In this document: positions 1 to 21,569 of the stretch, piece by piece
Layout: every line of letters begins with the position of its first letter
Position numbering within the stretch: position 1 is the first letter of the stretch
Source: a virus
Taxonomy: Duplodnaviria > Heunggongvirae > Uroviricota > Caudoviricetes
IMG/VR virus record: IMGVR_UViG_2579778938_000006
DNA length: 36,312 nucleotides
Strand: one strand, 5' to 3'
Notes under the pieces: generated by a model
Databases searched by the model: none
What the model was told of the DNA's origin: nothing
What the model saw: only the letters and a program-made list of their open reading frames with translations
Program-made: the position numbers and the translations under genes

Positions 1-756
1 TTACGGGGTAATGCCAACCGCTGCCGCCACTTTGTCGCCACTAGTGCTTTGTTTTTCGAATTCATCTAAGGCTCTTTCAACATCAGAAAGATACTCTTTG
101 AATGAGTTCAAGATCATGCTTAACGAGCCCCCCATAAATAGGACCTGTTTTCCATCTTTTTTAAAAAAATCAGGATATTTTTCTATAAGTTCAATAATGC
201 TTTTAATATTTTGCCCGTCGTTTTCTAAGTATTTTGCATCATTATGCGCACAACTGTTTCTTAATTTTGTTATTTTTTTGATATTCGAATAGTGGGATGT
301 TGACTTCATCCCTATCATTTTTTTGATAAATAGATGGCTCCTCTCAAATCCACTTCCTTTGAGATCTGAAACATTTATAGGAGAATGATGTCTATTAGCA
401 AAGTTGTTACAGAATTTTTCTATTTCGTGTTCAAAAATTCCGAATATAGTTAAGAATACTGACCTGCGGATAATACTTGGGTAGTATTCTAAAAACATTT
501 CATCGAGATCTAGCGATGAGCTGGTGAGTCCCATGTAATGATCAATTGACTGGTATACACCATCTTCCGGAGATATTTCAATTATATATTCTTCAGGTCC
601 TTTGTCTTTATATTCTGCTATGCCCTTAGCGATTGATGATTCGCTATGAGTGATTAACGTCTCGATAATATCAAATGTTAAAGAGAAGTCGAATATTGGT
701 AATTGAAACAAAAACTTAACCATGCTTGAGCCTTTAAGAATCTGATTTAGTAACAT
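1..756 (-). CDS. Hypothetical cargo protein (~240-251 aa) with RNxxAH (HEPN-like) motif; candidate Abi/defence or toxin protein
   Basis: AT-rich ORF downstream of int on the same strand; alternative start at 723 (MVKF...) has an AAAGG Shine-Dalgarno and avoids the overlap with int; contains LRNSCAHN; last codons cross the attL core. Confidence 0.55.
   Translation of the reverse strand: MLLNQILKGSSMVKFLFQLPIFDFSLTFDIIETLITHSESSIAKGIAEYKDKGPEEYIIEISPEDGVYQSIDHYMGLTSSSLDLDEMFLEYYPSIIRRSVFLTIFGIFEHEIEKFCNNFANRHHSPINVSDLKGSGFERSHLFIKKMIGMKSTSHYSNIKKITKLRNSCAHNDAKYLENDGQNIKSIIELIEKYPDFFKKDGKQVLFMGGSLSMILNSFKEYLSDVERALDEFEKQSTSGDKVAAAVGITP
19..40. repeat. attL: attL core candidate (cgctgccgccactttgtcgcca)
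   Basis: Matches 33458..33479 at 21 of 22 positions; lies just beyond the 3' end of int as in P2-like prophages. Confidence 0.6.
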
Positions 757-1765
757 CCAAAGTTGCTAGTGGATTGAAACGAAGAGCTGTCTCTAAGTGA
801 TCAGGTGATAGATGAGCATAACGCATAGTCATTTTTATGTCGTGATGTCCGAGGATTTTTTGCAAAGCAAGGATGTTTCCACCCGACATCATGAAATGCG
901 CCGCAAACGTATGGCGCAGAACGTGTGTCAGTTGACCGCGAGGGAGTACGATAGACGTTTTTTCCATCACAGATAAAAATTGAAAATAGCAGTCTGTGAA
1001 GAAATTGAACCCATCAAGCGCCATGATCTCTTCGTAAAGGTCTTTACTGATAGGGATGCTTCTGTTTTTCTTCCCTTTCGTTCTTACAAAGGTAATTCGG
1101 TATTTGGTTACCTGTGAGCGGGTAAGATTTACGGCTTCACGCCAGCGTGCGCCTGTGCTTAAGCATATCTTAACTACCAGTGCCAGTATTGGGTCCTGAC
1201 GTTTGCAATCAGCCAGCAATTCAACAATCTGCTCATGAGTAAGCCATGCCATCTCCTTTTCTGCGATGGTGAATTTTCGCATGTTCTCCAGTGGGTTCGG
1301 ATACGACCATTCGCCAAGGCGGGATAGTTCGCTAAAAACACTACTTAGATAGCTTTGCTCCAGGTTAATGGTGACCGGGCTTGCTCCTTTCTTCCATTTC
1401 TCGCTGAAGTAGATCTCGCCTGTCAGGCGTTTATCTCGATAGTGGGCAAACATTTTAGAGGTGAGATCAGTTGCAAGGGGATTGCCCAGAGCGTCAACCA
1501 TCAGCAGCAATTTGTCATAGACATGCTGCCCAGCAGTCAGTGATTTACCATGTAGTTTGAACCATAGCTCAACCACGTCTTTCAGTGTTCGACGATCCAC
1601 TGATTCACCTAGCCAGGGCTTTGCTTCGGTTTCTTCCATCGTGTGACGCTCAAAAGCCAGTGCTTCGCCTTTGGTGGCGAATTGTTTACGCACACGACGC
1701 CCACTACGTCCGGCGGGGTAACATTCGCAAAGCCATTTTCCTGTGGTGAGTTTTCGTACAGCCAT
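734..1765 (-). CDS. int: Tyrosine integrase (P2/186 Int family)
   Basis: Translation has conserved tyrosine-recombinase blocks (LSTGARWREA, HVLRHTFAAHFM, ILGHHDIKMTMRYAHL); likely start MAVRKLTTGKW at 1765 rather than the upstream ATG at 1921. Confidence 0.9.
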   Translation of the reverse strand: MAVRKLTTGKWLCECYPAGRSGRRVRKQFATKGEALAFERHTMEETEAKPWLGESVDRRTLKDVVELWFKLHGKSLTAGQHVYDKLLLMVDALGNPLATDLTSKMFAHYRDKRLTGEIYFSEKWKKGASPVTINLEQSYLSSVFSELSRLGEWSYPNPLENMRKFTIAEKEMAWLTHEQIVELLADCKRQDPILALVVKICLSTGARWREAVNLTRSQVTKYRITFVRTKGKKNRSIPISKDLYEEIMALDGFNFFTDCYFQFLSVMEKTSIVLPRGQLTHVLRHTFAAHFMMSGGNILALQKILGHHDIKMTMRYAHLSPDHLETALRFNPLATLDVTKSDS

Positions 1766-1953
1766 AAAAAATGCCCTCCAATAGAGAGCATTTTTACTGT
1801 ATGCATAACCAGTGTCAATGTATGAAATCCTACGACCATACATCTCACTGAAGCCATAATTAAGTTGGCTATTCTTTTTGCTATGTGAGCATGTAATTTT
1901 TGCGTTTAACCTGCGGCTCATTTTTATTTTAGGCGCAGATATAAAAGCAAAAG

Positions 1954-4660: not shown

Positions 4661-5514
4661 GCACCATCCTGAAATGGGCGGGAAATAAAATCGCCATTAT
4701 GTCCGAACTGAAAAAACACCTTCCTGCTGGCCCGCGACTGGTTGAACCTTTCGCGGGTTCCTGTGCTGTGATGATGGAGACGGATTACCCCAGCTATCTT
4801 GTTGCGGATATTAATCCTGATTTAATCAACCTCTATAAAAAGGTTGCTGCTGATTGCGAGGCGTTTATATCTCGTGCCAGAGCTTTATTTGAGGAAGCAA
4901 ACAGGGAGGTGGCTTATTACAACATAAGGCAGGAGTTTAATTACTCCACTGAAATTACTGATTTCATGAAAGCGGTATATTTCCTGTATCTCAATCGTCA
5001 TGGTTACCGTGGATTATGTCGCTATAACAAGAGCGGGCATTTCAACATTCCGAACGGTAATTATAAAAATCCGTATTTCCCTGAAAAAGAAATTCGCGCA
5101 TTTGCAGAGAAAGCCCAGCGTGCAACGTTTATCTGCGCAAGCTTTGATGAAACGCTGGCGATGCTGCAGGTGGGGGATGTGGTGTATTGCGATCCGCCGT
5201 ATGACGGTACGTTTTCCGGCTATCACACTGATGGCTTCACTGAAGATGACCAGTATCACCTGGCATCCGTTCTTGAACATCGATCATCTGAAGGTCATCC
5301 GGTCATTGTTTCTAACAGTGACACATCCCTGATTCGTTCGCTGTATCGCAATTTCACTCACCACTACATCAAGGCAAAACGCAGCATCGGCGTGTCGGCT
5401 GGCGAGAGTAAATCTGCAACAGAAATCATTGCTGTTTCCGGGGCGCGCTGCTGGGTGGGATTTGATCCTTCGCGTGGCGTGGATAGTTCTGCCATGTACG
5501 GAGTGCGTGCATGA
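4657..5514 (+). CDS. dam: DNA adenine (N6) methyltransferase, Dam family
   Basis: Motif I FAGSCAV and catalytic DPPY; N-terminal WAGNK; ATGA overlap with the upstream gene. Confidence 0.85.
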
Positions 5515-7925
5515 GCCATGATGATATGAACAACTGCAGCGGCTTTAACGAGGTCGCCGCAGCATTCTCATGGAACAGCCCGAAAAAGGCTATTAACCCT
5601 TATCTGGACCCGGCGGAAGTTGCGCCGGTTTCTGCGCTTTCAAACCTGATCACTCTGTACGCTGCCGATAACGAGCAGGAACAACTGCGCCGCGAGGCAC
5701 TGAGTGATCAGGTCTGGGAGCGTTATTTCTTTAATGAATCCCGTGATCCTGTCCAACGCGAAATGGAGCAGGATAAGCTCATTAGCCGGGCAAAGCTGGC
5801 GCATGAGCAGCAGCGTTTTAACCCGGACATGGTCATTCTGGCAGACGTTAACGCCCAGCCTTCCCATATCAGCAAGCCGCTGATGCAACGTATTGAATAC
5901 TTCAGCAGTCTGGGCAGGCCAAAGGCTTATTCCCGCTATTTGCGTGAGACGATTAAGCCATGTCTGGAACGACTGGAGCATGTACGCGACAGTCAGCTAT
6001 CCACTTCTTTTCGCTTTATGGCAAGCCATGAAGGGCTGGACGGCCTGCTGATCCTGCCTGAAATGAGTCAGGAGCAGGTGAAACGCTTGTCTACCCTTGT
6101 CGCTGCGCATATGAGCATGTGCCTTGATGCAGCTTGTGGCGATTTGTATGTCACCGATGACGTTAAGCCAGAAGAAATCCGCAAGACATGGGAAAAGGTG
6201 GCAGCGGAAACCCTGCGTCTGGATGTCATCCCGCCTGCGTTTGATCAACTCCGCCGGAAAAGAAACCGCCGTAAACCCGTGCCCTATGAACTCATTCCGG
6301 GTTCGCTGGCGCGTATGTTGTGCGCCGACTGGTGGTATCGGAAATTATGGAAGATGCGTTGCGAATGGCGGGAAGAGCAGTTGCGCGCTGTCTGCCTGGT
6401 CAGCAAAAAAGCATCTCCTTATGTCAGCTATGAAGCCGTGATGCATAAACGTGAGCAGCGCCGTAAGTCGCTGGAGTTTTTCCGTTCTCATGAACTGGTG
6501 AACGAAGACGGCGACACGCTGGACATGGAGGATGTGGTAAACGCCAGCAGCAGCAACCCTGCGCATCGCCGCAATGAGATGATGGCCTGTGTTAAAGGTC
6601 TGGAGCTTATCGCGGAAATGCGCGGTGACTGCGCCGTTTTCTACACCATCACCTGTCCGTCACGTTTCCATTCCACGCTAAATAACGGCAGGCCCAACCC
6701 GACCTGGACAAATGCGACGGTAAGACAAAGCAGTGATTATCTGGTCGGCATGTTTGCTGCATTTCGTAAGGCGATGCACAAAGCCGGATTGCGCTGGTAT
6801 GGCGTGCGGGTGGCTGAGCCGCATCATGACGGTACAGTTCACTGGCACCTGTTGTGTTTTATGCGCAAAAAAGATCGCCGCGCCATTACTGCTTTGTTGC
6901 GTAAGTTTGCCATTCGTGAAGACCGCGAGGAGCTGGGTAATAACACAGGACCACGCTTTAAGTCTGAGCTGATAAACCCGCGCAAAGGTACGCCAACAAG
7001 CTACATCGCGAAATACATCAGTAAGAACATTGACGGGCGTGGTCTGGCTGGCGAGATCAGCAAGGAAACGGGTAAATCCCTGCGTGATAACGCTGAATAC
7101 GTTAATGCCTGGGCGTCTCTGCATCGTGTTCAGCAATTCCGCTTCTTTGGTATTCCAGGGCGTCAGGCTTACCGTGAACTGCGGTTGTTGGCTGGTCAGG
7201 CGGCAAGGCAGCAGGGTGACAAAAAAGCAGGTGCGCCGGTACTGGATAACCCGCGCCTTGATGCCATCCTGGCTGCTGCTGATGCTGGCTGTTTTGCCAC
7301 CTACATTATGAGGCAGGGCGGCGTGCTGGTTCCTCGCAAATATCACTTGATCAGAACCGCTTATGAAATCAATGAAGAGCCGACCGCCTATGGCGATCAC
7401 GGTATTCGTATTTATGGCATCTGGTCACCCATTGCAGAGGGCAAGATCTGCACTCATGCAGTGAAGTGGAAAATGGTTCGTAAAGCCGTTGACGTTCAGG
7501 AGGCGGCAGCCGACCAGGGCGCTTGCGCCCCTTGGACTCGTGGCAATAACTGTCCCCTTGCTGAAAATTTGTACCAACAAGGGAAAGACAAATCAGCTGA
7601 TGGGGATACCAGAACGGATATCACCCGTATGGATGACAAGGAGTTGCACGATTACCTGCACAGTATGAACAAAAAAGAACGCCGGGAACTGGCTGCAAGG
7701 TTACGCCTGGTGAAACCGAAACGGCGTAGAGACTACAAACAGCGAATTACAGACCATCAACGACAGCAGCTCGTCTATGAACTGAAGTCCAGAGGATTTG
7801 ATGGCAGCGAGAAAGAGGTCGATTTACTCCTTCGCGGCGGCAGTATTCCGTCAGGAGCAGGCCTGCGTATCTTCTATCGGAACCAGCGTTTGCAGGAAGA
7901 TGATAAGTGGCGGGATCTGTATTAA
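5511..7925 (+). CDS. A: Replication initiation protein A (rolling-circle HUH endonuclease, P2 gpA family)
   Basis: 804-aa protein with HUH-like VHWHLL and tyrosine block [10 protein letters not shown]; position after the early regulators. Confidence 0.85.
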
Positions 7926-8017
7926 TTACGCGGGTTAACAATTCGTGCTCTTAATAATACCAGGCATATCAGGCTGATGAACGTAAAAAAACGTTTTACA
8001 TCAGTAAGATTATTATA

Positions 8018-8037
8018 TACTGTAAATATAAACAGTG
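8018..8037 (+). promoter_or_regulatory. LexA (SOS) box TACTGTAAATATAAACAGTG overlapping a candidate promoter (-35 TTTACA 7995..8000)
   Basis: CTGT-N8-ACAG with AT-rich spacer, about 40 bp upstream of the tum-like start. Confidence 0.75.
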
Positions 8038-8078
8038 GTTATGTGTACAGTATTGCTTGTGGTGTCATAGGAGGAAAA

Positions 8079-8267
8079 ATGCAGGACTATTTTTTGGAGT
8101 CTTTGAAGCTCCAGCGCATTGATTTTTTTCTTAAGCTTGTAGCGGCTAGTGAGTGTAGTGATGAAGAGAAGGGGCTGGCTCTGCAGTGGGTTTCTGAATT
8201 GACTGATGAACTCATGGCAAAAATCAGAAGCCACGAATACAACCGCTCAATGGATGTCATCAGCTGA
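8079..8267 (+). CDS. tum: Tum-like SOS-inducible small protein (candidate antirepressor N-terminal module, 62 aa)
   Basis: AGGAGGA SD; directly downstream of the LexA box; position of 186 tum. Confidence 0.45.
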   Translation: MQDYFLESLKLQRIDFFLKLVAASECSDEEKGLALQWVSELTDELMAKIRSHEYNRSMDVIS

Positions 8268-8277
8268 GGTGACTTTT

Positions 8278-8511
8278 ATGCGCATTGAAATAATGATCGA
8301 TAAAGAGCAGAAAATTAGCCAGTCTACCCTGGACGCCCTTGAATCCGAGCTTTACCGCAATCTGCGCCCCCTGTATCCCAAAACGGTAATTCGTATCCGC
8401 AAAGGTAGCTCTAACGGTGTGGAACTGACCGGACTGCAACTGGACGAAGAAAGAAAACAAGTGATGAAAATTATGCAGAAGGTGTGGGAAGACGACAGCT
8501 GGCTGCATTAA
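8278..8511 (+). CDS. DinI-family protein (77 aa)
   Basis: Translation MRIEIMIDK...LDALESEL...IRIRKG...ERKQVMKIMQKVWEDDSW aligns by eye with E. coli DinI (MRIEVTIAK...IDALAGEL...KQRISEILQETWESADDW). Confidence 0.75.
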   Translation: MRIEIMIDKEQKISQSTLDALESELYRNLRPLYPKTVIRIRKGSSNGVELTGLQLDEERKQVMKIMQKVWEDDSWLH

Positions 8512-9016
8512 GAAACGTTGCTGGCGTCTGAACTTGCTTCTGGCGTCAGCAAGGTTGAATAACGAGCTGTGCGAGGCGTTAGCCATCTGATCAAAAGACA
8601 TCAAATATCATATTGTATATCGTGGTCAAACGCTGGAAACAATCATTCCCGGTCAGAGGGGCTTCTTTCAATGTCTAAAAGAGTGAGATAGAGGATACAG
8701 GATGGGAAGAGCTTATGATGATTGTTCTTGGATTGACTTGGAATATTTGATGTCCATTATCTAATGGACTTGGTCTTGATAGTTATCACGAAAGAGGAAG
8801 CCAACGTCATGTATTTGAAGAGTATCTCTTACCTTTTGATTAATTATTGTCCAAGTTTTTCAAAAGCTTCTTATCTGGCGGTCGATACATGATTTACTGT
8901 TGGATATGGTATTTAAAATTAATCTTTACACTGTGGTATATGCAGAATAGGATATTATCAATACAATCAAACTGTTTTCATACGGTTGTTAATATTGCAA
9001 TGTTATAGGTAATGTC

Positions 9017-10135
9017 ATGTATCTTTTCAAGTATTACCGTCCGGACTTCTTCTTCGAGAAAGCTATTCGTTATAATGAATTATATTTTTCCGCTCCTGCG
9101 CAATTGAATGATCCTAATGATCTCAATATAGATTATCGTTTTGATAATAAATTGAAATTATGGGATATTTTATTGCGTTCTCCTTGCGATAAATCCTATA
9201 AAAATTTGAGTCACATATTAGATTTGAGTAATTTGAATATACATAAGGGATTGAATCGTATTTTTAGAGGAAAAAAAATAAAAAGTAGCATTGAGTCATT
9301 AGATAGCCTGTTTGACTCACACGTTGATGAGATACGTAAGATCATAAATGATGGTTTACTACCTATCAATGTGATTAATTCCGCTATTTATGGGAATATT
9401 CCTGAACCACGCCAATTTTTGGTCTCACTTTGCGAGAACAGTATCAAAGAAAGGTTGTATAGGAAAATAGTTCCTGCAGTATTCAGTGTGTCATTTTCAG
9501 CTAATGCGTTAGATCGTATGATGTGGGCGCATTATGCTGCAGGCTTTAGTGGTTGTGTTGTGATTTATGAAACGCAGGATTTTAATATTAATGGCGTACC
9601 ACATCCTGGAATGAAGTTAAGAGAAAATTTATTTTCATCAGATAAAATTAATTTTCCAGTTAAGCCAATAAAATATAGTAATCAAGCTAAAGAGGTTTCA
9701 CTTCTAGACCCAAGCGCAAATGTTGCAGAGTTATTTTTAACTAAAAATAGATTTTGGAGATATGAAGCTGAATATCGAATGTTTATTCCAGAGGCAAATG
9801 CAGGAATAGGGAGTGAGCGGCATGTTCAAAGACACGTAAATCGAAATATTGGACATGTTTTTCATCATGATGCTAATGTTGTTAAAGGGATCATTTTTGG
9901 TCCTAGAATGTGTGAAATGAAAAAAGAAAGCATATGGAATTGTATCAAGTCAAATATGGAGAATTCAAATTCAACAATATGTTATTTTTTTGACTCTGAG
10001 TTATCAGCATCAGGAAAGATTACTATTTCAAAAGGGCAACGAGCGGAAAAAATGAAAAATTTCCCTTTGTTCAGGAACAAGTTAAGTCAGACGGAAATGG
10101 CTAAAGTTTTGAAGGAAATTGGCATTACGAACTAA
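9017..10135 (+). CDS. Hypothetical 372-aa cargo protein, DUF2971-like N-terminus; candidate anti-phage gene
   Basis: Very AT-rich; N-terminus LFKYYRPDFFFEKAIRYNELYFSAPAQLNDPNDL resembles the DUF2971 signature as I recall it; own terminator downstream; in the P2 old/tin hotspot position. Confidence 0.6.
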   Translation: MYLFKYYRPDFFFEKAIRYNELYFSAPAQLNDPNDLNIDYRFDNKLKLWDILLRSPCDKSYKNLSHILDLSNLNIHKGLNRIFRGKKIKSSIESLDSLFDSHVDEIRKIINDGLLPINVINSAIYGNIPEPRQFLVSLCENSIKERLYRKIVPAVFSVSFSANALDRMMWAHYAAGFSGCVVIYETQDFNINGVPHPGMKLRENLFSSDKINFPVKPIKYSNQAKEVSLLDPSANVAELFLTKNRFWRYEAEYRMFIPEANAGIGSERHVQRHVNRNIGHVFHHDANVVKGIIFGPRMCEMKKESIWNCIKSNMENSNSTICYFFDSELSASGKITISKGQRAEKMKNFPLFRNKLSQTEMAKVLKEIGITN

Positions 10136-10201
10136 CCTAACAACAGTGCATGCCTATGCTGCCTGAATTTGCATGACCGTTTGAGGATCGTTTTTGCTAA
10201 G

Positions 10202-10225
10202 GCCCGCCAGAACTGGCGGGCTTTT
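10202..10225 (+). terminator. Rho-independent terminator (GCCCGCC-agaact-GGCGGGC-TTTT)
   Basis: 7-bp GC stem, 6-nt loop, T-run; 67 bp downstream of the 372-aa gene stop. Confidence 0.7.
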
Positions 10226-10270
10226 GCGTGGATCAGGCACCTGCATGAAAACCACTACACAAAGCGGGCA

Positions 10271-10283
10271 GGCGTGGCGGGGA
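10271..10283. other. cos: cos-like motif GGCGTGGCGGGGA (possible cohesive-end site)
   Basis: Matches the first 13 nt of the P2/186 19-nt cohesive end as I remember it (GGCG[A/T]GGCGGGGAAAGCA); diverges after that. Confidence 0.3.
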
Positions 10284-10409
10284 TACGAGCGCGCGCTAGA
10301 AACGTTTACTGATATTCTTGTAGTACATTGCATTTTTCTTTTTTTATGTCATATCATTAGCCATTTGAATAGGACATTATTATCAATTTGTTGTCTCTGA
10401 GGATAAGTT

Positions 10410-12191
10410 ATGAATTTTGATGCAACACCACTAAATATAAAAAACATTCTATCTGTAAAACAAAGATATGTTATTCCTCGTAATCAACGTGAGTTTAGTT
10501 GGGAAAAGCTTCAGCTTGAAGAGTTATGGCAAGATATTGTCAGAAACATAAGGTTGAATGAAGATGGACAGAACTTGGAGTGTTCAGAATATTTTATAGG
10601 GACTATTGTTCTTTCTGGAGCAGATAGTGATGATGTATTAGAAGTGGTTGATGGACAACAACGATTTTCAGTTATTACTATATTGCTTTCATTAATATCG
10701 CGTAAATTGCGTTCCTTAGGGCAAGATTCATTAGCGGATGATATATTTAAAACATATATCGTTACTGTGAGTCCTACATTTAGCAGAAGCCAATTAGCTT
10801 CAAATGGTGAGACATTTATTGAAAAATTAGCAAAAAATAGCGATAGAACATATTTTAAGTTAAAATATCAAGATCGCGAAGAGCATCAAGTTGATGAATC
10901 TTGTGAAGAGGATGTACGTATAAGTTATGCAGGAATTTTTCTTTCTAGAAAACTAGGGAGGAAATCACTCTGTTCTGCATTGTTGCGAGATGGTGCAAAA
11001 CATTATAATAACCAAGATTATATATTTTGTTTGACTGCTGTATATAGAATGATTACCAATTATTTGAAGTTGGTAAAAATATCTGTAGGTAAGGAGGATG
11101 ATGCTTATGATATTTTTGAAGTGTTGAATGCTCGAGGGATAAACTTAAGTTCAATTGATTTGATAAAGAATAAAGTATTCCAAACTTGCACTCAAACATA
11201 TCCGGTAGATATTGCAAAAACAAAATGGGATTATATCGTTACTCAAATTGAGTCTAGGGATAGTAATAGCACTATTGCTGATTATATTAGAACGTGGTGG
11301 CTTTCTAAGTATAATTATATTGGAGAAGATCAACTTTATCGTGCTTTTAAACGTGAGATTCAAGATGAGAATACTTTATTGTCATCAGCATCATTTCTGA
11401 ACGAATTATATGATGATGTTGAATTATACTGTAAAATAATAGCGCCAAATACAGATGACTGGCCTCAACCTGATCAGCGTGAAATTTACAACTCGTTAAA
11501 AGCATTCGAGATTTTTAATGTGAGTATTCCTCGACCATTTGTACTCTCATTACTTAGAAAACGTAAAGAGAAACCGAGAGCCCTTACACAATCAATGCTG
11601 ATAGAATGTTTGAAGTCCTTAGAGTCATTTCACTTTAAGTTTAATGCAGTATGTCGTCTAAGACCATCTGGAATCGATGCAAAATATTCTGTATTAGCAG
11701 TAAGAATGAATAAGGCATTAAATAAAAGAGATGTTGAGGGTGTTATTAATGACGCGTTAGATTATTTTACACAGAAAGGGCCTTCAGAAAATATATTCAA
11801 ACAAGCATTTTCAAAGAATATTGTTTATACAAATAAAAAGTCTGGGCAAAGGAAGTTGATTGTTTATATTTTTGACAAATTGGAACGTATCAGACGAGGG
11901 ACACGAGAGTTAAAAATGGATATAGTTTCTTTGGAACACATATCATCTCAAAGCAAAACTAACGAGTCAGTCGTGGGTATGATTGGTAATTTACTACCAC
12001 TCTGTTTTTCACTTAATGAAGATTGCAAAAATTATGAGTTGCACAAAAAAATAGAATCTTATAAAAAATCTGATTTAAAATTAGTTACAGAGTTTGTTAG
12101 TGAGTCAGAAGCAAGAGAACATAAATGGGATGATTCATTAATAAAAGAAAGAACAGATAGCTTGGCGTTAGAAACGTTTGCTAAAATATAA
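10410..12191 (+). CDS. DUF262 (ParB-like/GmrS) + DUF1524 (His-Me finger/GmrD) fusion nuclease, 593 aa; GmrSD/BrxU-like type IV restriction candidate
   Basis: Motifs VIPRNQREFSWE, VDGQQRFSVI, FEVLNARGINLSSIDLIKNK (DUF262) and SLEHISSQ...GNLLPL...NEDCKN (DUF1524-like); AT-rich; GAGGA SD. Confidence 0.8.
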   Translation: MNFDATPLNIKNILSVKQRYVIPRNQREFSWEKLQLEELWQDIVRNIRLNEDGQNLECSEYFIGTIVLSGADSDDVLEVVDGQQRFSVITILLSLISRKLRSLGQDSLADDIFKTYIVTVSPTFSRSQLASNGETFIEKLAKNSDRTYFKLKYQDREEHQVDESCEEDVRISYAGIFLSRKLGRKSLCSALLRDGAKHYNNQDYIFCLTAVYRMITNYLKLVKISVGKEDDAYDIFEVLNARGINLSSIDLIKNKVFQTCTQTYPVDIAKTKWDYIVTQIESRDSNSTIADYIRTWWLSKYNYIGEDQLYRAFKREIQDENTLLSSASFLNELYDDVELYCKIIAPNTDDWPQPDQREIYNSLKAFEIFNVSIPRPFVLSLLRKRKEKPRALTQSMLIECLKSLESFHFKFNAVCRLRPSGIDAKYSVLAVRMNKALNKRDVEGVINDALDYFTQKGPSENIFKQAFSKNIVYTNKKSGQRKLIVYIFDKLERIRRGTRELKMDIVSLEHISSQSKTNESVVGMIGNLLPLCFSLNEDCKNYELHKKIESYKKSDLKLVTEFVSESEAREHKWDDSLIKERTDSLALETFAKI

Positions 12192-12197
12192 GTTCAG

Positions 12198-12218
12198 TGG
12201 CAGGTATAGTACCTGCCA
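12198..12218. terminator. Perfect hairpin (TGGCAGGTA-tag-TACCTGCCA) between convergent genes; possible bidirectional terminator
   Basis: 9-bp stem with 3-nt loop between the stop of the DUF262 gene and the stop of Q; no strong T-run. Confidence 0.4.
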
Positions 12219-12227
12219 TTATTCAAT

Positions 12228-13265
12228 TCACATACACTCCACAGAGTATTCACTGAATGAGATGATGTTTTTTTTAGCCCATTCATTAAGTTGCAGAATA
12301 TGTTTTTGAATTGGTAGTAACTCATTCATAACAAATACTTTCGCGGCCTTTTCCACATCCCCAAACCCCCCAACATTATTAGGCATAATCCCCATCATTT
12401 GCGGTGGCACACGATGCGCCGCCATCATGTCATCCCGGCTCACGTTCTTGATGTTTAGAAACTCATCCTTCGCCGCCACTTCTGACAACGGGATAATCTG
12501 AAGTCCGTCCTTTTTCCCGTTAGGCGAGTACATAAATAGGTTGCGGAAGTTACCTGGTCCTTTGGCGCTTTTCATCGCATTGCGGAGGTTGTTCACGTCC
12601 TCCTGGTTCTGCGCGGCATCGGTCATGTACATGATGAAGCCAGCATGACTGCCGTTTATGTAATACTTTCGACGGAACAGCGTGGCGGACTCATTGAGCA
12701 GGGCGGACGGAATAGCAGAAAGATAGCCGGGCAGGCCATAGATCTCCTGATTTATGTCCGGTTCCATCAGATGGAAAATGCTGCCTTTCGTGAACTGATA
12801 CGGCTGCGTAGTCATGCCGTATTGCACAAACCAGTAGGTATCCAGGTCTAATCCGCGTCGGGTGTATTTTGCCAGAGCAGGCTCAAGGGCGATAACTTCA
12901 CCGAACCGGTTTGTGCGTTTCTCCAGGTAGGCGTTACCAAATACCAGATAGTCCTGCACAAAACGCGAAAAAGCCTGCTGGCTGAGCAGCGGATGAGGGA
13001 TATAGGTACTGGTCAGAATGTTGCATTTCACCGCAATTGGTGAACTGTGGTGCACGGCAGCGCGGAAGGTGCGCGCCAGTCCGTCAAAGCTGACGGGCGG
13101 CTCATACCAGCGATCTGTCTGTACGCATTCCACATAGTCCAGCAGTTCTCGGCGGTCCAGAACAGGAACGGGATCGCCGAAGCTGAATACTTCGGCTGTA
13201 GTCTGGCTTTTAAGCTGGATCTGTTTCGTCGCCGCAGCGCGGTTTTTCTTACTCTTTCCCATCAA
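12228..13265 (-). CDS. Q: Portal protein (P2 gpQ)
   Basis: 345-aa ORF, P2 synteny (Q-P leftward, O-N-M-L rightward); overlaps the P stop. Confidence 0.85.
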   Translation of the reverse strand: MMGKSKKNRAAATKQIQLKSQTTAEVFSFGDPVPVLDRRELLDYVECVQTDRWYEPPVSFDGLARTFRAAVHHSSPIAVKCNILTSTYIPHPLLSQQAFSRFVQDYLVFGNAYLEKRTNRFGEVIALEPALAKYTRRGLDLDTYWFVQYGMTTQPYQFTKGSIFHLMEPDINQEIYGLPGYLSAIPSALLNESATLFRRKYYINGSHAGFIMYMTDAAQNQEDVNNLRNAMKSAKGPGNFRNLFMYSPNGKKDGLQIIPLSEVAAKDEFLNIKNVSRDDMMAAHRVPPQMMGIMPNNVGGFGDVEKAAKVFVMNELLPIQKHILQLNEWAKKNIISFSEYSVECM

Positions 13266-15028
13266 AAAATCTCCACAATATTGCTGGTATTGGCGGACTC
13301 GCCCTGCAGCGGTTCGTTAAACAGTGCGTGCATTGTTGCCCAGGCCAGATCGGCATGGCTGGTTTCTTCGCTGCGGCTGGCTTCATAGGTTGGGCGGTTG
13401 CCGCTGGCAGTGGTGGCGCGACGGATTGCCATAAAGGACTGCGCTATGTCGGTGTGCCCGGCGTCAAACTCTAGGCGGCGGTGGCTAATAATGTCGTAGG
13501 CCTTGAGTACCAGGGCGTTTTTAACGTTGGGGTTGTAGACAAACTCCCGGATGGCAGGAAAAAACGCTTTCACGTTCTCGTAAACCCCGTGACCGACGCC
13601 GGTTGAGTCGATACCGATATATGTCACGTTGTACTGTTCGGTCAGTTTTTTGATGGCGTCAGCCTGGGCGCGGAAGTCCATTCCGCGCCACTGGTGACGC
13701 TCAAGAATGCGGAACTTACCACCTGGCACGGCTGGCGGTGCCACCACCACGCATCCGGCGCTGTCGCCGTTCTGCGTACCTTTTGCCGGGTCATAACCGA
13801 TCCACACTTCGCGCCAGCCAAACGGGCGCAGCGCCAGTGCATGAAAGTCGGTCCAGACTTCCCAGCTGTCTACCATGCACGCCTGCAGCTCGCTGAGCGG
13901 GAATACGGACGCGAGATCGTCCACGAACTCACACATCAGCAGATTCTGGTATTCGTCCGGGCTGTACTCCATGCGCAACTGGTCAAGGTCGAACAGGTTA
14001 CATCCGCCGCGCACCGCATCTTCCACAGTGACTATCTGGCGGTACTGCCCGTCTGCGCACAGCAGGCCGGGGGCCAGATTGCTGTGGGACAGGTCGATGT
14101 CCACCTTATCGGCTTTGTTGCGCCCTCGGTTGAACAGCGCACCGGACCAGAACGGATAAGCACTGTGTGTCAGGCTGGATGGCGTGGAAAAATAGGTCTG
14201 TCGCCATTTTTTGTGAATAGCCATACCGGAAGCCACTTTGCGCAGCTCCTGGAATTTCGGTATCCAGAAATATTCATCCAGATACAGGTTGCCGTGGTAA
14301 CTCTGGGCCGTGCGGGCATTGGTGCCGAGGAAGTAAAGCGTGGCCCCGTTAGGAAGCACCATCGGATCACCTTTCAGCTCCACCTCGACTTCTTTGGCGA
14401 AATCGATGATGTACTGCTTAAAGACGTGAGCCTGTGCCTTACTGGCAGAAAGGAAAATCTGGTTACGTCCGGTAAGCAGGGCGTCAATCAGGGCCTCACG
14501 GGCAAAATAGAAGGTCGCGCCGATCTGGCGTGACTTTAGCAGGTTGCGGATGCGGTTGGTTTTTCCGGCTTCCCACCAGTGGCGCTGGTAGTTAAACATG
14601 GAGGAATGGAAAATTTCTTCCAGCTTCTCAATTTGTTCATCGGTGAAAACATTCTTTTCAGGCTGACGGCGTGGGCCTTTGTTGCGGTTGGCGACGTTAG
14701 GGTTTAAGTCGGCTTCGTTGCCGCCATTGTTAAACTTGCCGATCCGCGCGTGGCGTTCAGACTGGCGCGCCAGCAGGTCAATCTCTTTGAAATCTTTCCC
14801 TTCTTTGTGCTCCTTCATGATGAGCTGGCAGTAGCGTGCGGCGGTGGTGAGCTGCATCTGATCCAGCGGCCCATAGTCACCCCACTTGTCGCGTTTTTTC
14901 CAGCTGTGAACGGTTGCAACTTTCTCGCCCAGCATTTCAGCAATGCGGGCTACGCGGTATCCCTGAAAGTACAGCAGCATGGCCTGCCGACGGGGATCGA
15001 GATCTGCGGGTGTCAGTGTGGTGTTCAT
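13262..15028 (-). CDS. P: Terminase large (ATPase) subunit (P2 gpP)
   Basis: 588-aa ORF, synteny with Q; divergent from O. Confidence 0.85.
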   Translation of the reverse strand: MNTTLTPADLDPRRQAMLLYFQGYRVARIAEMLGEKVATVHSWKKRDKWGDYGPLDQMQLTTAARYCQLIMKEHKEGKDFKEIDLLARQSERHARIGKFNNGGNEADLNPNVANRNKGPRRQPEKNVFTDEQIEKLEEIFHSSMFNYQRHWWEAGKTNRIRNLLKSRQIGATFYFAREALIDALLTGRNQIFLSASKAQAHVFKQYIIDFAKEVEVELKGDPMVLPNGATLYFLGTNARTAQSYHGNLYLDEYFWIPKFQELRKVASGMAIHKKWRQTYFSTPSSLTHSAYPFWSGALFNRGRNKADKVDIDLSHSNLAPGLLCADGQYRQIVTVEDAVRGGCNLFDLDQLRMEYSPDEYQNLLMCEFVDDLASVFPLSELQACMVDSWEVWTDFHALALRPFGWREVWIGYDPAKGTQNGDSAGCVVVAPPAVPGGKFRILERHQWRGMDFRAQADAIKKLTEQYNVTYIGIDSTGVGHGVYENVKAFFPAIREFVYNPNVKNALVLKAYDIISHRRLEFDAGHTDIAQSFMAIRRATTASGNRPTYEASRSEETSHADLAWATMHALFNEPLQGESANTSNIVEIF

Positions 15029-20145: not shown

Positions 20146-20539
20146 AGCGGTGCCTTATGTCCGCAATAACCCGGAAAAACTGCATCTGTTTGTGGATAAC
20201 GGTTCGCTGGTTGCCACGGGGGCCAGCTCCATGTCGTGGGAGTACCGTTACACCCTGAACGCGGTGATTGAGGATTTCAGCGGCGACCAGAATCTGTTGA
20301 TGGCCCCGGTTTTGCTGTGGCTGAGGGATAACCAGCCCGATGCCATCAATAACCCGGCGTTACGGGAAAAACTATTCACCTTTGAGGTGGATATTCTGCG
20401 CAACGATGTCTGTGATATCAGCTTGAACCTGCAACTGACGGAACGTGTGCTGGTCAGCACTGACGGCAGTGTGTCGAGCGTTGAAGCTGTAGCGGAACCC
20501 GATGAACCTGAAGAAATGTGGACGGTGAAACGTGGCTGA
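20087..20539 (+). CDS. R: Tail completion protein R (P2 gpR)
   Basis: 150-aa ORF, synteny; exact start uncertain. Confidence 0.7.
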   Translation: MRVRSETVNKPQSLRHALNKAVPYVRNNPEKLHLFVDNGSLVATGASSMSWEYRYTLNAVIEDFSGDQNLLMAPVLLWLRDNQPDAINNPALREKLFTFEVDILRNDVCDISLNLQLTERVLVSTDGSVSSVEAVAEPDEPEEMWTVKRG

Positions 20540-20984
20540 ACTGCAGAAAGTGGACGACTGGCTGAGTGCCTTGCTGGCGAATCTGGAACCAGCCGCCAGA
20601 AGCCGCATGATGCGCCAGCTGGCGCAGGAACTGCGCCGGACACAGCAGCAGAATATCAGGATGCAGCGCAACCCTGACGGCAGCAGTTATGAACCGCGAC
20701 GGGTAACAGCACGAAGTAAAAAAGGGCGCATCAAACGTCAGATGTTTGCAAAGCTGCGCACCACAAAATACCTGAAAACCGCCGCCAGCGCGGATTCTGC
20801 CAGCGTACAGTTTGAAGGTAAGGTGCAGCGCATTGCCCGCGTTCATCATTACGGCCTGCGCGATCGCGTCAGTCCAAAGGGGGGAGTCATTAAGTATCCA
20901 TCCCGAAAATTGCTGGGTTTAAATGAACATACTGAAAATGAAGTAAGAGATTTACTTTTAAAGTATTTTTTGATGAAAAATTAG
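20532..20984 (+). CDS. S: Tail completion protein S (P2 gpS)
   Basis: 150-aa ORF; the last ~30 codons run into AT-rich DNA. Confidence 0.8.
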   Translation: MAELQKVDDWLSALLANLEPAARSRMMRQLAQELRRTQQQNIRMQRNPDGSSYEPRRVTARSKKGRIKRQMFAKLRTTKYLKTAASADSASVQFEGKVQRIARVHHYGLRDRVSPKGGVIKYPSRKLLGLNEHTENEVRDLLLKYFLMKN

Positions 20985-20989
20985 AATGT

Positions 20990-21520
20990 TTACGCACTTA
21001 ATAAACTTAAATAACTTTTTATGCTTTGGCAAAAAGGGAAAAGGTCTATTTTAATTTTCCAGTTTTTTTTGTTTTGAACCCCAGAAGCAATAATAGAACC
21101 ATCCCAATATTTTATTCCATTTTTGCCGGTCTTTTTTGTTAACTCAAAACTTAATGCGTGAATAATTTTATTGCAGCATTCGCGTATAGAACCTTTAACA
21201 TGACCATCTATAACAAAAAGTATATTTTCATGTTCTTCAAATGCTTCTTTCTCAGGTGAGTAATCTGGGTTCCACTCATGTTCACTAGTGTCTTGGAGAA
21301 TTCGTAGTTTTGTACAAAGGCTAATAAGATTGTTGCTAATGGTATATTCCAACCATCCGTTGTACGATAACTCCTCCATTTCAAATTCAGTTACTATAGA
21401 ATCATCATATACTTTCTGTGTGGAATATATACGCTGTAAATAAAATTCAGATGAACAGCATAATTGCTCAATTATTCTTGCGTGTTCTTCTATAGCGTAA
21501 TAATCAATTGGATGGCTCAT
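20990..21520 (-). CDS. Hypothetical moron protein (176 aa; 189 aa if started at 21559) between tail genes S and V on the opposite strand
   Basis: AT-rich ORF antiparallel to the late operons; AAAGG SD before ATG 21520; convergent with S, divergent from V. Confidence 0.6.
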   Translation of the reverse strand: MSHPIDYYAIEEHARIIEQLCCSSEFYLQRIYSTQKVYDDSIVTEFEMEELSYNGWLEYTISNNLISLCTKLRILQDTSEHEWNPDYSPEKEAFEEHENILFVIDGHVKGSIRECCNKIIHALSFELTKKTGKNGIKYWDGSIIASGVQNKKNWKIKIDLFPFCQSIKSYLSLLSA

Positions 21521-21551
21521 TCTTTTACCTTTCTTCGATTGGAATTGTATT

Positions 21552-21569
21552 TGTGTCATTTACCACACA
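21552..21569. promoter_or_regulatory. TGT-N12-ACA dyad (Ogr/Delta site) upstream of V (PV-like late promoter)
   Basis: TGTgtcatttaccacACA centred ~55 bp upstream of the V ATG. Confidence 0.45.

Follow-up and report, generated by a model that had tools for sequence, protein, structure and literature searches.

A DUF2971 gene in the cos-proximal region of a P2/186-type Escherichia coli prophage, most likely encoding a single-gene, Aristaios-like anti-phage ADP-ribosyltransferase

We analysed a 36,312-nucleotide stretch of viral DNA (IMG/VR record IMGVR_UViG_2579778938_000006; hereafter the window), which is a P2/186-type prophage of Escherichia coli, and within it an AT-rich gene for a 372-residue protein of the DUF2971 family. 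This gene most likely encodes a single-gene anti-phage ADP-ribosyltransferase (ART) resembling the lactococcal system Aristaios. We put the probability that it defends by ADP-ribosylation at roughly 0.6; that the target is specifically a nucleic acid is rather doubtful. Family, fold and status as mobile cargo are, taken jointly, highly probable. A function that had been called unknown from the sequence alone is thus narrowed to that of an ART-fold defence candidate. The gene and its associated elements are as follows.

9017..10135, plus strand: gene for the DUF2971/PDC-S31 protein; ATG start, 372 residues, ART fold, isoelectric point 9.2, no membrane segment.
8583..10145, plus strand: DUF2971 cargo module (promoter region, gene and 3' end), the content of the right-arm slot; boundaries from blastn.
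8925..8953, plus strand: candidate sigma-70-type promoter, TTTACA (8925-8930), 17 nt, TAGGAT (8948-8953); from a promoter scan and conservation.
10199..10225, plus strand: GC-rich hairpin followed by TTTT, a probable intrinsic terminator; RNAfold -23.4 kcal/mol.

The open reading frame (ORF) is a genuine gene under purifying selection, because dN/dS is 0.14-0.20 against diverged copies (dS 0.06-1.5) and full-length homologues, uniformly of about 366-386 residues, occur in 59 clusters at 90% identity. Its coordinates, strand, start and length all agree with the sequence-only reading that first picked it out, and the start codon at 9017 is backed by the opening M1-Y-L-F-K-Y, which is kept in all homologues. 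The GC content of the gene is 0.33, and it lies in an AT-rich island at about 8500-12500 (GC 0.31-0.39, against 0.52-0.60 in the flanking prophage). The roughly 500 bp of ORF-poor, AT-rich DNA described upstream is also there: the 505 bp between the DinI-like gene and the start codon (8512-9016; GC about 0.38-0.39) contain only ORFs of 40-53 residues, none of which is conserved in divergent loci. The protein itself has no signal peptide and no hydrophobic segment (maximum KD19 1.06).

Membership of the DUF2971 family can be regarded as secure from the PDC-S31 and phrog_1762 matches, the annotation of homologues and the alignment. The PADLOC PDC-S31 model PDLC04990 matches residues 3-312 over profile positions 9-236 of 259 (2.2e-23), the matches to three other PDC-S31 models range from 7e-17 to 4e-5, and phrog_1762 covers residues 1-345 (1.2e-29). 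Many homologues of 59-71% identity carry a precomputed PF11185 match, and the RefSeq/PGAP name for copies that are 97-99% identical is 'DUF2971 domain-containing protein'; no NCBIfam model matches the protein. The current Pfam DUF2971 model (PF11185), which the sequence-only reading had proposed as a check, has 89 positions and a gathering cutoff of 22, and residues 169-255 align to all of it (positions 1-89 of 89) at 22.0 bits and E 4e-4. That reading had rested on the N-terminus, where the resemblance holds in so far as ELxFxS..ELNDPxD is a true family signature, but the segment matched by the Pfam model is 169-255 instead. Beyond the short Pfam model, the family-wide signatures are the N-terminal ELxFxS..LNDPxD, MW.HYA, W.YE.E.R and G.IFG, and residues N31, D32, S159, Y173, G179, Y220, K243, W247, E250, E252, R254 and G291 are the same in all of 46 aligned sequences, the most distant of which has 17% identity. 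An exhaustive profile search recovered 6,687 clusters at 50% identity with E<=1e-3 and just 23 with E<=1e-30; the tight subfamily of 366-386 residues is small and restricted to Enterobacterales, Pseudomonas and a few other taxa.

The structural model of the protein has the split beta-sheet, NAD+-binding core of the ART fold. Its structural relatives (scores in brackets) are DarT from Mycobacterium tuberculosis (7.7) and from Thermus (7.0), Thermosipho DarTG (6.7), E. coli DarT1 (6.2) and the RNA 2'-phosphotransferase Tpt1/KptA (6.9, 6.6 and 6.4), together with the Rhs toxins TreX and TreTu, PARP15, scabin, heat-labile enterotoxin and pertussis-like toxins. The core is nearest to the nucleic-acid-modifying ARTs DarT and Tpt1. 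Foldseek with the model returned nothing significant from the PDB (best E 0.07) or from the BFVD viral structures (best E 0.05). Hidden Markov model profiles of the subfamily (A1) and of the wider family (A2), run against all PDB sequences, gave chance matches to peptide deformylase alone and reached no DarT chain. Independent work in two publications points to the same fold: in a 2025 survey DUF2971 was predicted to belong to the ARTs, with DarT, AbiGi and Tox-ART-HYD1 as relatives and with a conserved Tyr, ExE motif, large helical inserts and a 'modified H-Y-E' as features (PMC12522546), and the authors of the Aristaios report assign the ART fold to their 316-residue DUF2971 protein (PMC11381338).

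Within the core, E250-x-E252 stands at the start of strand 252-259, S157-x-S159 lies in strand 154-161 and H172-Y173 falls in the next helix; K5 and R8 are invariant within the subfamily. Judged by conservation, the NAD+ site is probably formed by N31-D32, S159 (of S-x-S), Y173, K243, W247 and E250-x-E252-x-R254. The motif-bearing segments are the most conserved parts of the protein. Conservation is lowest in a helical insert (46-150) and in the C-terminal tail (317-372), and for this reason both are candidates for target specificity or trigger sensing. It is unlikely that the fold has been inactivated or repurposed, with the protein serving as an NAD+/nucleotide sensor, an NADase or a nucleic-acid binder without ADP-ribosyl transfer: E-x-E, S-x-S and the Tyr are strictly invariant across a very divergent family, which argues for retained ART-type catalysis.

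The gene behaves as variable cargo and not as a core gene of the phage, as had been suggested from the sequence. It is present in 27 of 5,426 complete E. coli genomes, against 2,384 with matches to the prophage backbone, and all 27 copies lie between dinI and the portal gene of a P2-like prophage. Nucleotide identity is 97.7-99.3%, with one copy at 82.7%. Among other loci that have the same cohesive-end (cos) site and a measurable dinI-to-cos slot, 1 of 80 carries the gene. The backbone of the window is 97-98% identical to prophages carrying other cargo, and the slot content varies between them. Beyond this setting, a homologue of 63% identity lies between type IV secretion system operons of a Salmonella integrative and conjugative element (ICE), one of 40% identity lies between dnaB and Q of a lambdoid prophage, another is found in Lonsdalea beside SIR2+DUF87 and insertion sequence (IS) elements, and a Pseudomonas homologue occupies a small island. 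A tblastn search of 50,697 phage genomes gave one weak partial match.

This distribution bears on the possibility that the protein is an ART acting for the prophage's own, non-defence benefit, whether in host take-over, in counter-defence during P2-type lytic growth or in superinfection exclusion like that by 186 Orf97. Phage ARTs that modify host proteins are well established (T4 Alt, ModA and ModB), the gene is phage-borne and directly downstream of an SOS-inducible operon from which read-through on induction is possible, and the 186 record notes that Orf97, from the same slot, blocks 186 infection. The gene is nevertheless not conserved in P2-like phages, as the counts of 27 in 5,426 genomes and 1 in 80 slots make plain; it is found just as readily in an ICE, in chromosomal islands and in defence islands and is almost absent from sequenced phage genomes; and it has no similarity to Orf97 and its own promoter rather than phage-operon wiring. 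We consider this explanation improbable.

The 59 neighbours at seven further loci include Thoeris ThsA/ThsB, MADS genes, RmrA, a type II restriction endonuclease, ArdC and prophage genes, and no Pfam or PADLOC family is seen repeatedly among them. The DUF2971 gene therefore has no conserved partner and no antitoxin in the contexts examined, and its single-gene status follows from this lack of a recurring neighbour family, from the lack of any conserved flanking ORF and from a promoter that is conserved together with the gene. A DarG macrodomain antitoxin was not found beside any copy, the sole macro domain among the neighbours being that of Thoeris ThsA at one locus. An antitoxin in the form of a small ORF or RNA within the 505-bp upstream region was considered and rejected, nothing coding being conserved there beyond close relatives. 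These results leave it very improbable that the protein is an addiction or post-segregational toxin of a mobile element, or that it is secreted or injected to act as an effector on other cells. In no context is an antitoxin or immunity gene conserved beside it; the protein has neither signal peptide nor hydrophobic segment and is not fused to an Rhs, contact-dependent inhibition or type VI secretion delivery domain, its homologues being uniformly of about 366-386 residues; the ICE copy resembles cargo inserted between transfer operons; and no macrodomain or ARH gene was detected among the window ORFs scanned.

The surroundings of the lambdoid homologue are of separate note. At this locus (L008, positions 4807-10471; E. 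coli lambdoid prophage, Logan SRR7533017) the DUF2971 homologue is flanked by DUF7380/EMARD_N, LEM-3-type GIY-YIG and HNH_2 genes, and the dnaB-to-Q region looks like a multi-gene cargo island of nuclease-like candidates.

Transcription of the DUF2971 gene as a separate unit, claimed by the sequence-only reading, is supported by a -35/-10 pair conserved with the gene and by the hairpin downstream; additional SOS read-through is possible. The promoter scan as a whole was not above chance. Both hexamers and their spacing are kept upstream of the copies in P2 prophages, in the Salmonella ICE and in the Lonsdalea and Brenneria islands, and in the 40%-identity subgroup, which includes the lambdoid prophage copy, the promoter reads TTTACA-17-AAGGAT within surrounding DNA that has diverged. 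The rho-independent terminator placed at 10202..10225 corresponds to a real and strong hairpin (10199-10224) with an 11-bp stem and a GC core at 10202-10221, followed by TTTT (10222-10225) and then G; its U-tract is just 4 long, and a simple terminator scanner did not report it. The hairpin falls within the conserved cos region. It has a homologue in the 186 sequence CGCCAGAGCTGGCGCGGC, close to cosR at the right end, where the counterpart hairpin is not annotated as a terminator.

The limits of the cargo module were taken from blastn comparisons. In two prophages without the gene (L001 and L002), similarity to the window ends at 8582, and the DUF2971-carrying prophages (L003-5 and L014-18) are all collinear with the window from 8583 to about 10297. 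A 113-bp segment upstream of the promoter (8720-8832), which holds a small hairpin (8752-8769) and a promoter-like site, occurs in the window and in the 99.3% group (L003). The 98% group of DUF2971 prophages lacks it, so the module can do without it.

The gene is followed by a 274-bp gap (10136-10409) and then by a second AT-rich gene on the same strand. The gap contains the cos site.

10146..10297: conserved cos region, the overlap of both module boundaries; from blastn.
10271..10289, plus strand: predicted 19-nt cohesive end (cos), GGCGTGGCGGGGATACGAG; by homology to 186, with inferred cut positions.
10410..12191, plus strand: DUF262 + DUF1524 GmrSD-like type IV restriction enzyme of the HEC-06 type, 593 residues, in the left-arm slot; from Pfam and PADLOC.

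The cos region is a GC-richer segment of about 150 bp, and 87 records of P2-like phages, from Klebsiella, Salmonella, Yersinia and E. coli, share it at 87-92% identity. Window positions 10205-10283 align at 66 of 81 positions with the right end of 186, reaching into the first 13 bases of its annotated 19-nt cos, and the predicted 19-mer, counted from the sequences, is identical to that of 186 at 15 of 19 positions and to that of P2 at 14 of 19. The exact 19-mer is present in at least 120 IMG/VR contigs. None of these starts at it, all 120 matches being internal because the contigs are prophage-derived. Since cos lies between them, the DUF2971 and DUF262 genes stand at opposite ends of the packaged genome.

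Loci from the IMG/VR contigs sharing the exact cos 19-mer were used to survey the intervals on either side. The dinI-to-cos slot, whose content had been singled out for such a survey, is indeed variable: of 81 measurable loci, 23 are empty (about 206 bp) and 45 exceed 600 bp, and the sequences form 34 clusters. The cos-to-portal interval could be measured in 87 loci, with 9 empty (154-189 bp), 73 above 600 bp and 64 clusters. Both intervals are measurable in 55 loci, which display 50 different combinations, and one right-slot cluster that was seen six times has six different left-slot partners. The published gpA-gpQ hotspot is really two slots, dinI-to-cos and cos-to-portal, which assort almost freely. 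The window is itself a mosaic, in which a right arm like that of L003 (99.5% identical up to 10298) and a left arm like that of L002 (99.6% identical from 10146) are joined in the cos region, and the conserved cos region is likely the recombination anchor between the two slots. The locus illustrates cargo shuffling of the P2 type, in which an obligatorily conserved cos region between the slots can act as a homology anchor, so that right- and left-end cargo can be exchanged independently, and the cos anchor bears on a recombination mechanism that recent P2/P4 literature calls unresolved.

The 593-residue neighbour matches Pfam GmrSD_N (2e-32) and GmrSD_C (1e-11) and PADLOC HEC-06 (7e-75), an experimentally validated GmrSD-like type that is active alone. 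Its gene fills the cos-to-portal interval, which is empty in both P2 and 186. That the two genes are independent cargo is settled by the way in which the cluster of each recurs with different cargo across cos: the DUF2971 cluster comprises the window and L067, which differ in left cargo, and the DUF262 cluster comprises the window and L129, which differ in right cargo. Elsewhere the DUF262 gene follows at least three other upstream cargoes (L001, L002 and L129), for example an HNH gene and a 141-residue hypothetical, and a near-identical DUF2971 gene (98-99% at the nucleotide level) precedes at least eight other downstream cargoes. The genes found after it are AIPR, PIN, DprA (in two genomes), DUF4145, a different DUF262 allele of 579 residues, a 380-residue hypothetical, and two hypotheticals with IS421. 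The sequence-only reading had favoured independence, which the cos site in the gap and the re-pairing of both genes strongly support. GmrSD-type enzymes recognise modified DNA, and a single two-gene system in which, for instance, the ART marks DNA and the GmrSD-like nuclease cuts it would be in keeping with two adjacent, AT-rich genes on the same strand of the same gpA-portal interval, but this reading is largely refuted by the genomics and is hardly credible: cos separates the genes and a strong hairpin follows the first, each is found with other partners and no complete E. coli genome has the window's pair, the homologues in the ICE, lambdoid prophage and genomic islands have no DUF262 neighbour, and HEC-06-type GmrSD needs no partner.

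Two further observations concern the left slot. E. coli prophages whose right slot holds other cargo commonly carry near-identical copies of the DUF262 gene. In the two E. coli P2-like prophages whose left slot holds DprA, no gene is annotated in the stretch of about 850 bp that separates cos from dprA (L005, 6303-7153; L017, 4302-5152); Rousset et al. validated DprA jointly with PRTase (PMC9122126), and this stretch may hold a decayed or unannotated partner.

On the reading that we favour, the DUF2971 gene would be a self-contained, horizontally mobile 'moron' encoding a cytoplasmic, single-protein anti-phage effector. The lysogen would express the protein from its own promoter, possibly with a contribution from SOS read-through, and the protein would stay inert until a competing phage infects. 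With NAD+ as donor it might then attach ADP-ribose to nucleic acid of the phage or the host, or to the transcription machinery. This would stop the phage from expressing its genes or replicating, and the infected cell would probably be lost in the process, an abortive infection of the kind reported for Aristaios. The protein would act alone, the DUF262 (GmrSD-like) gene being separate cargo across cos. Catalytic activity, a defence phenotype, the kind of target and trigger and an abortive outcome are what we infer for this protein. A more specific version, which we regard as rather doubtful, is a free-standing, DarT-like nucleic-acid ART without an antitoxin, in which the insert and tail would form a built-in phage sensor or autoinhibitory lid and give a one-protein sense-and-modify enzyme with a target unlike that of DarTG.

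Several points weigh against an anti-phage ART. The Pfam DUF2971 score falls exactly at the gathering threshold. The assignment of motif I and II residues is uncertain, the published 'modified H-Y-E' standing against the [K/R]-SxS-ExE look of the subfamily. A DarT-like toxin without an antitoxin is unusual, and the protein may therefore be non-toxic or even lack enzymatic activity. The likeness to Aristaios is one of shared Pfam family, compared by description, and a tblastn search of 72,556 PLSDB plasmids gave one weak Azospirillum match and no lactococcal match. The ART survey raises effector roles for some DUF2971 proteins, about 18% (PMC12522546); PDC-S31 is described as an untested candidate (bioRxiv 10.1101/2024.01.29.577857); and DUF2971 is absent from the file of tested systems in Rousset et al. 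(PMC9122126).

If an anti-phage ART is nonetheless what the gene encodes, it would be an E. coli-tractable member of a very large and barely studied family, for which the literature gives a figure of about 6,000 species. It would also allow a direct test of how a DarT-like ART can be carried safely without an antitoxin, of its substrate and of its phage cue. The questions of trigger, target and tolerance apply even to Aristaios, the sole validated member.

The remaining features place the gene within the prophage.

734-1921, reverse strand: integrase, followed by 186-type CI and CII and a Dam methylase.
5511-7925: replication protein A (gpA).
8020-8035, plus strand: LexA box CTGTAAATATAAACAG, the sole canonical LexA box in the window.
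8080-8267, plus strand: small orf of 62 residues, phrog_698.
8278-8511, plus strand: DinI-like gene.
12228-13265, reverse strand: portal (gpQ).
13262-15028, reverse strand: terminase, with late genes after it.

The order is thus gpA, the LexA-boxed orf-dinI pair, two AT-rich cargo genes, portal, terminase and late genes, and several complete E. coli genomes contain prophages to which the backbone is 97-98% identical over 84-86% of its first 25 kb. The LexA box, the 62-residue orf and the DinI-like gene (8020-8511) are the counterpart of the 186 p95 SOS operon. A hairpin follows dinI at about 8514-8556 (-23.5 kcal/mol). It lacks a U-tract, and homology to 186 t95a was considered and rejected, so that SOS transcription of the dinI operon might run on into the DUF2971 gene. 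A second LexA box before the DUF2971 gene was also rejected, the single canonical box of the window being that at 8020.

Two other ORFs of the prophage resemble cargo. One, of 189 residues (20990-21559, minus strand), lies in a sharply bounded AT-rich island (GC 0.32), with tail-completion gene S (20532-20984) on one side and the baseplate genes on the other. Neither Pfam nor PADLOC gives a match, and it has the look of a further cargo gene, here in the late-gene hotspot that has been described in P2-like phages. The other, an AT-rich ORF of 251 residues (1-756, minus strand; GC about 0.34), adjoins the integrase at the prophage edge. Its matches are weak alone, to HEPN RiboL-PSP (E 0.005) and HEC-01A (E 0.005), and it may be cargo of an integrase-att hotspot.

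Earlier publications already cover the family, its predicted fold, a validated member, the hotspot and this very protein. The 'cos-proximal' region of P2 between gpA and gpQ is a published defence hotspot (Rousset et al. 2022, PMC9122126), and the DUF2971 gene lies between gpA and the portal at a position that is variable between otherwise similar prophages. Table S5 of that study lists 'hypothetical + DinI + DUF2971 + hypothetical' with WP_021542067, which is the protein of L003 (PMC9122126). The supplements of the Vassallo 2022 E. coli screen contain no DUF2971. As the sequence-only reading had it, the gene occupies the position of P2 old/tin after the SOS operon, which is also that of 186 orf97; like these non-essential exclusion genes, it lies between the replication/SOS genes and cos, and it is the last gene of the right arm. 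P2 old and tin are on the opposite strand, their promoter adjoins cos, and the Old protein is an ABC-ATPase/Toprim nuclease; the DUF2971 gene is unlike them in these respects. Homology to tin, old or orf97 was rejected, BLASTP giving just short, insignificant patches and the protein having no AAA or Toprim domains.

DarT of the DarTG toxin-antitoxin systems is a single-stranded DNA thymidine/guanosine ADP-ribosyltransferase. Compared with DarT, the DUF2971 core has a helical insert of about 100 residues and an extra C-terminal region. Membership of the DarT family by sequence was rejected, the only match at E<=1 being DUF2971 in Pfam and PDC-S31 in PADLOC. AbiGi pairs with AbiGii as a two-gene system, whereas the DUF2971 gene has no partner. 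Together with Tox-ART-HYD1, AbiGi is nearest to DUF2971 among sequence families (PMC12522546), and an abortive-infection context is common to them.

PDC-S31 is one of 145 PADLOC candidates obtained by 'guilt-by-embedding' in BREX, DISARM and type I restriction-modification loci (Payne et al., bioRxiv 10.1101/2024.01.29.577857); a full-text literature search for 'PDC-S31' returned no paper. The window protein resembles this group in its direct profile match and single-gene character and differs from it in lying in a prophage cos-proximal hotspot. Aristaios, a 316-residue DUF2971 protein of the lactococcal plasmid pUCCL641_199 (Grafakou et al. 2024, PMC11381338), has been validated as an Abi-like system of one gene and impairs phage transcription (PMC11381338, PMC13064643). 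The window protein has 372 residues and belongs to an enterobacterial P2-like prophage, whereas Aristaios is Gram-positive and plasmid-borne, and the defence phenotype is that of Aristaios only. The window gene, for its part, shows no conserved partner in its genomic contexts.

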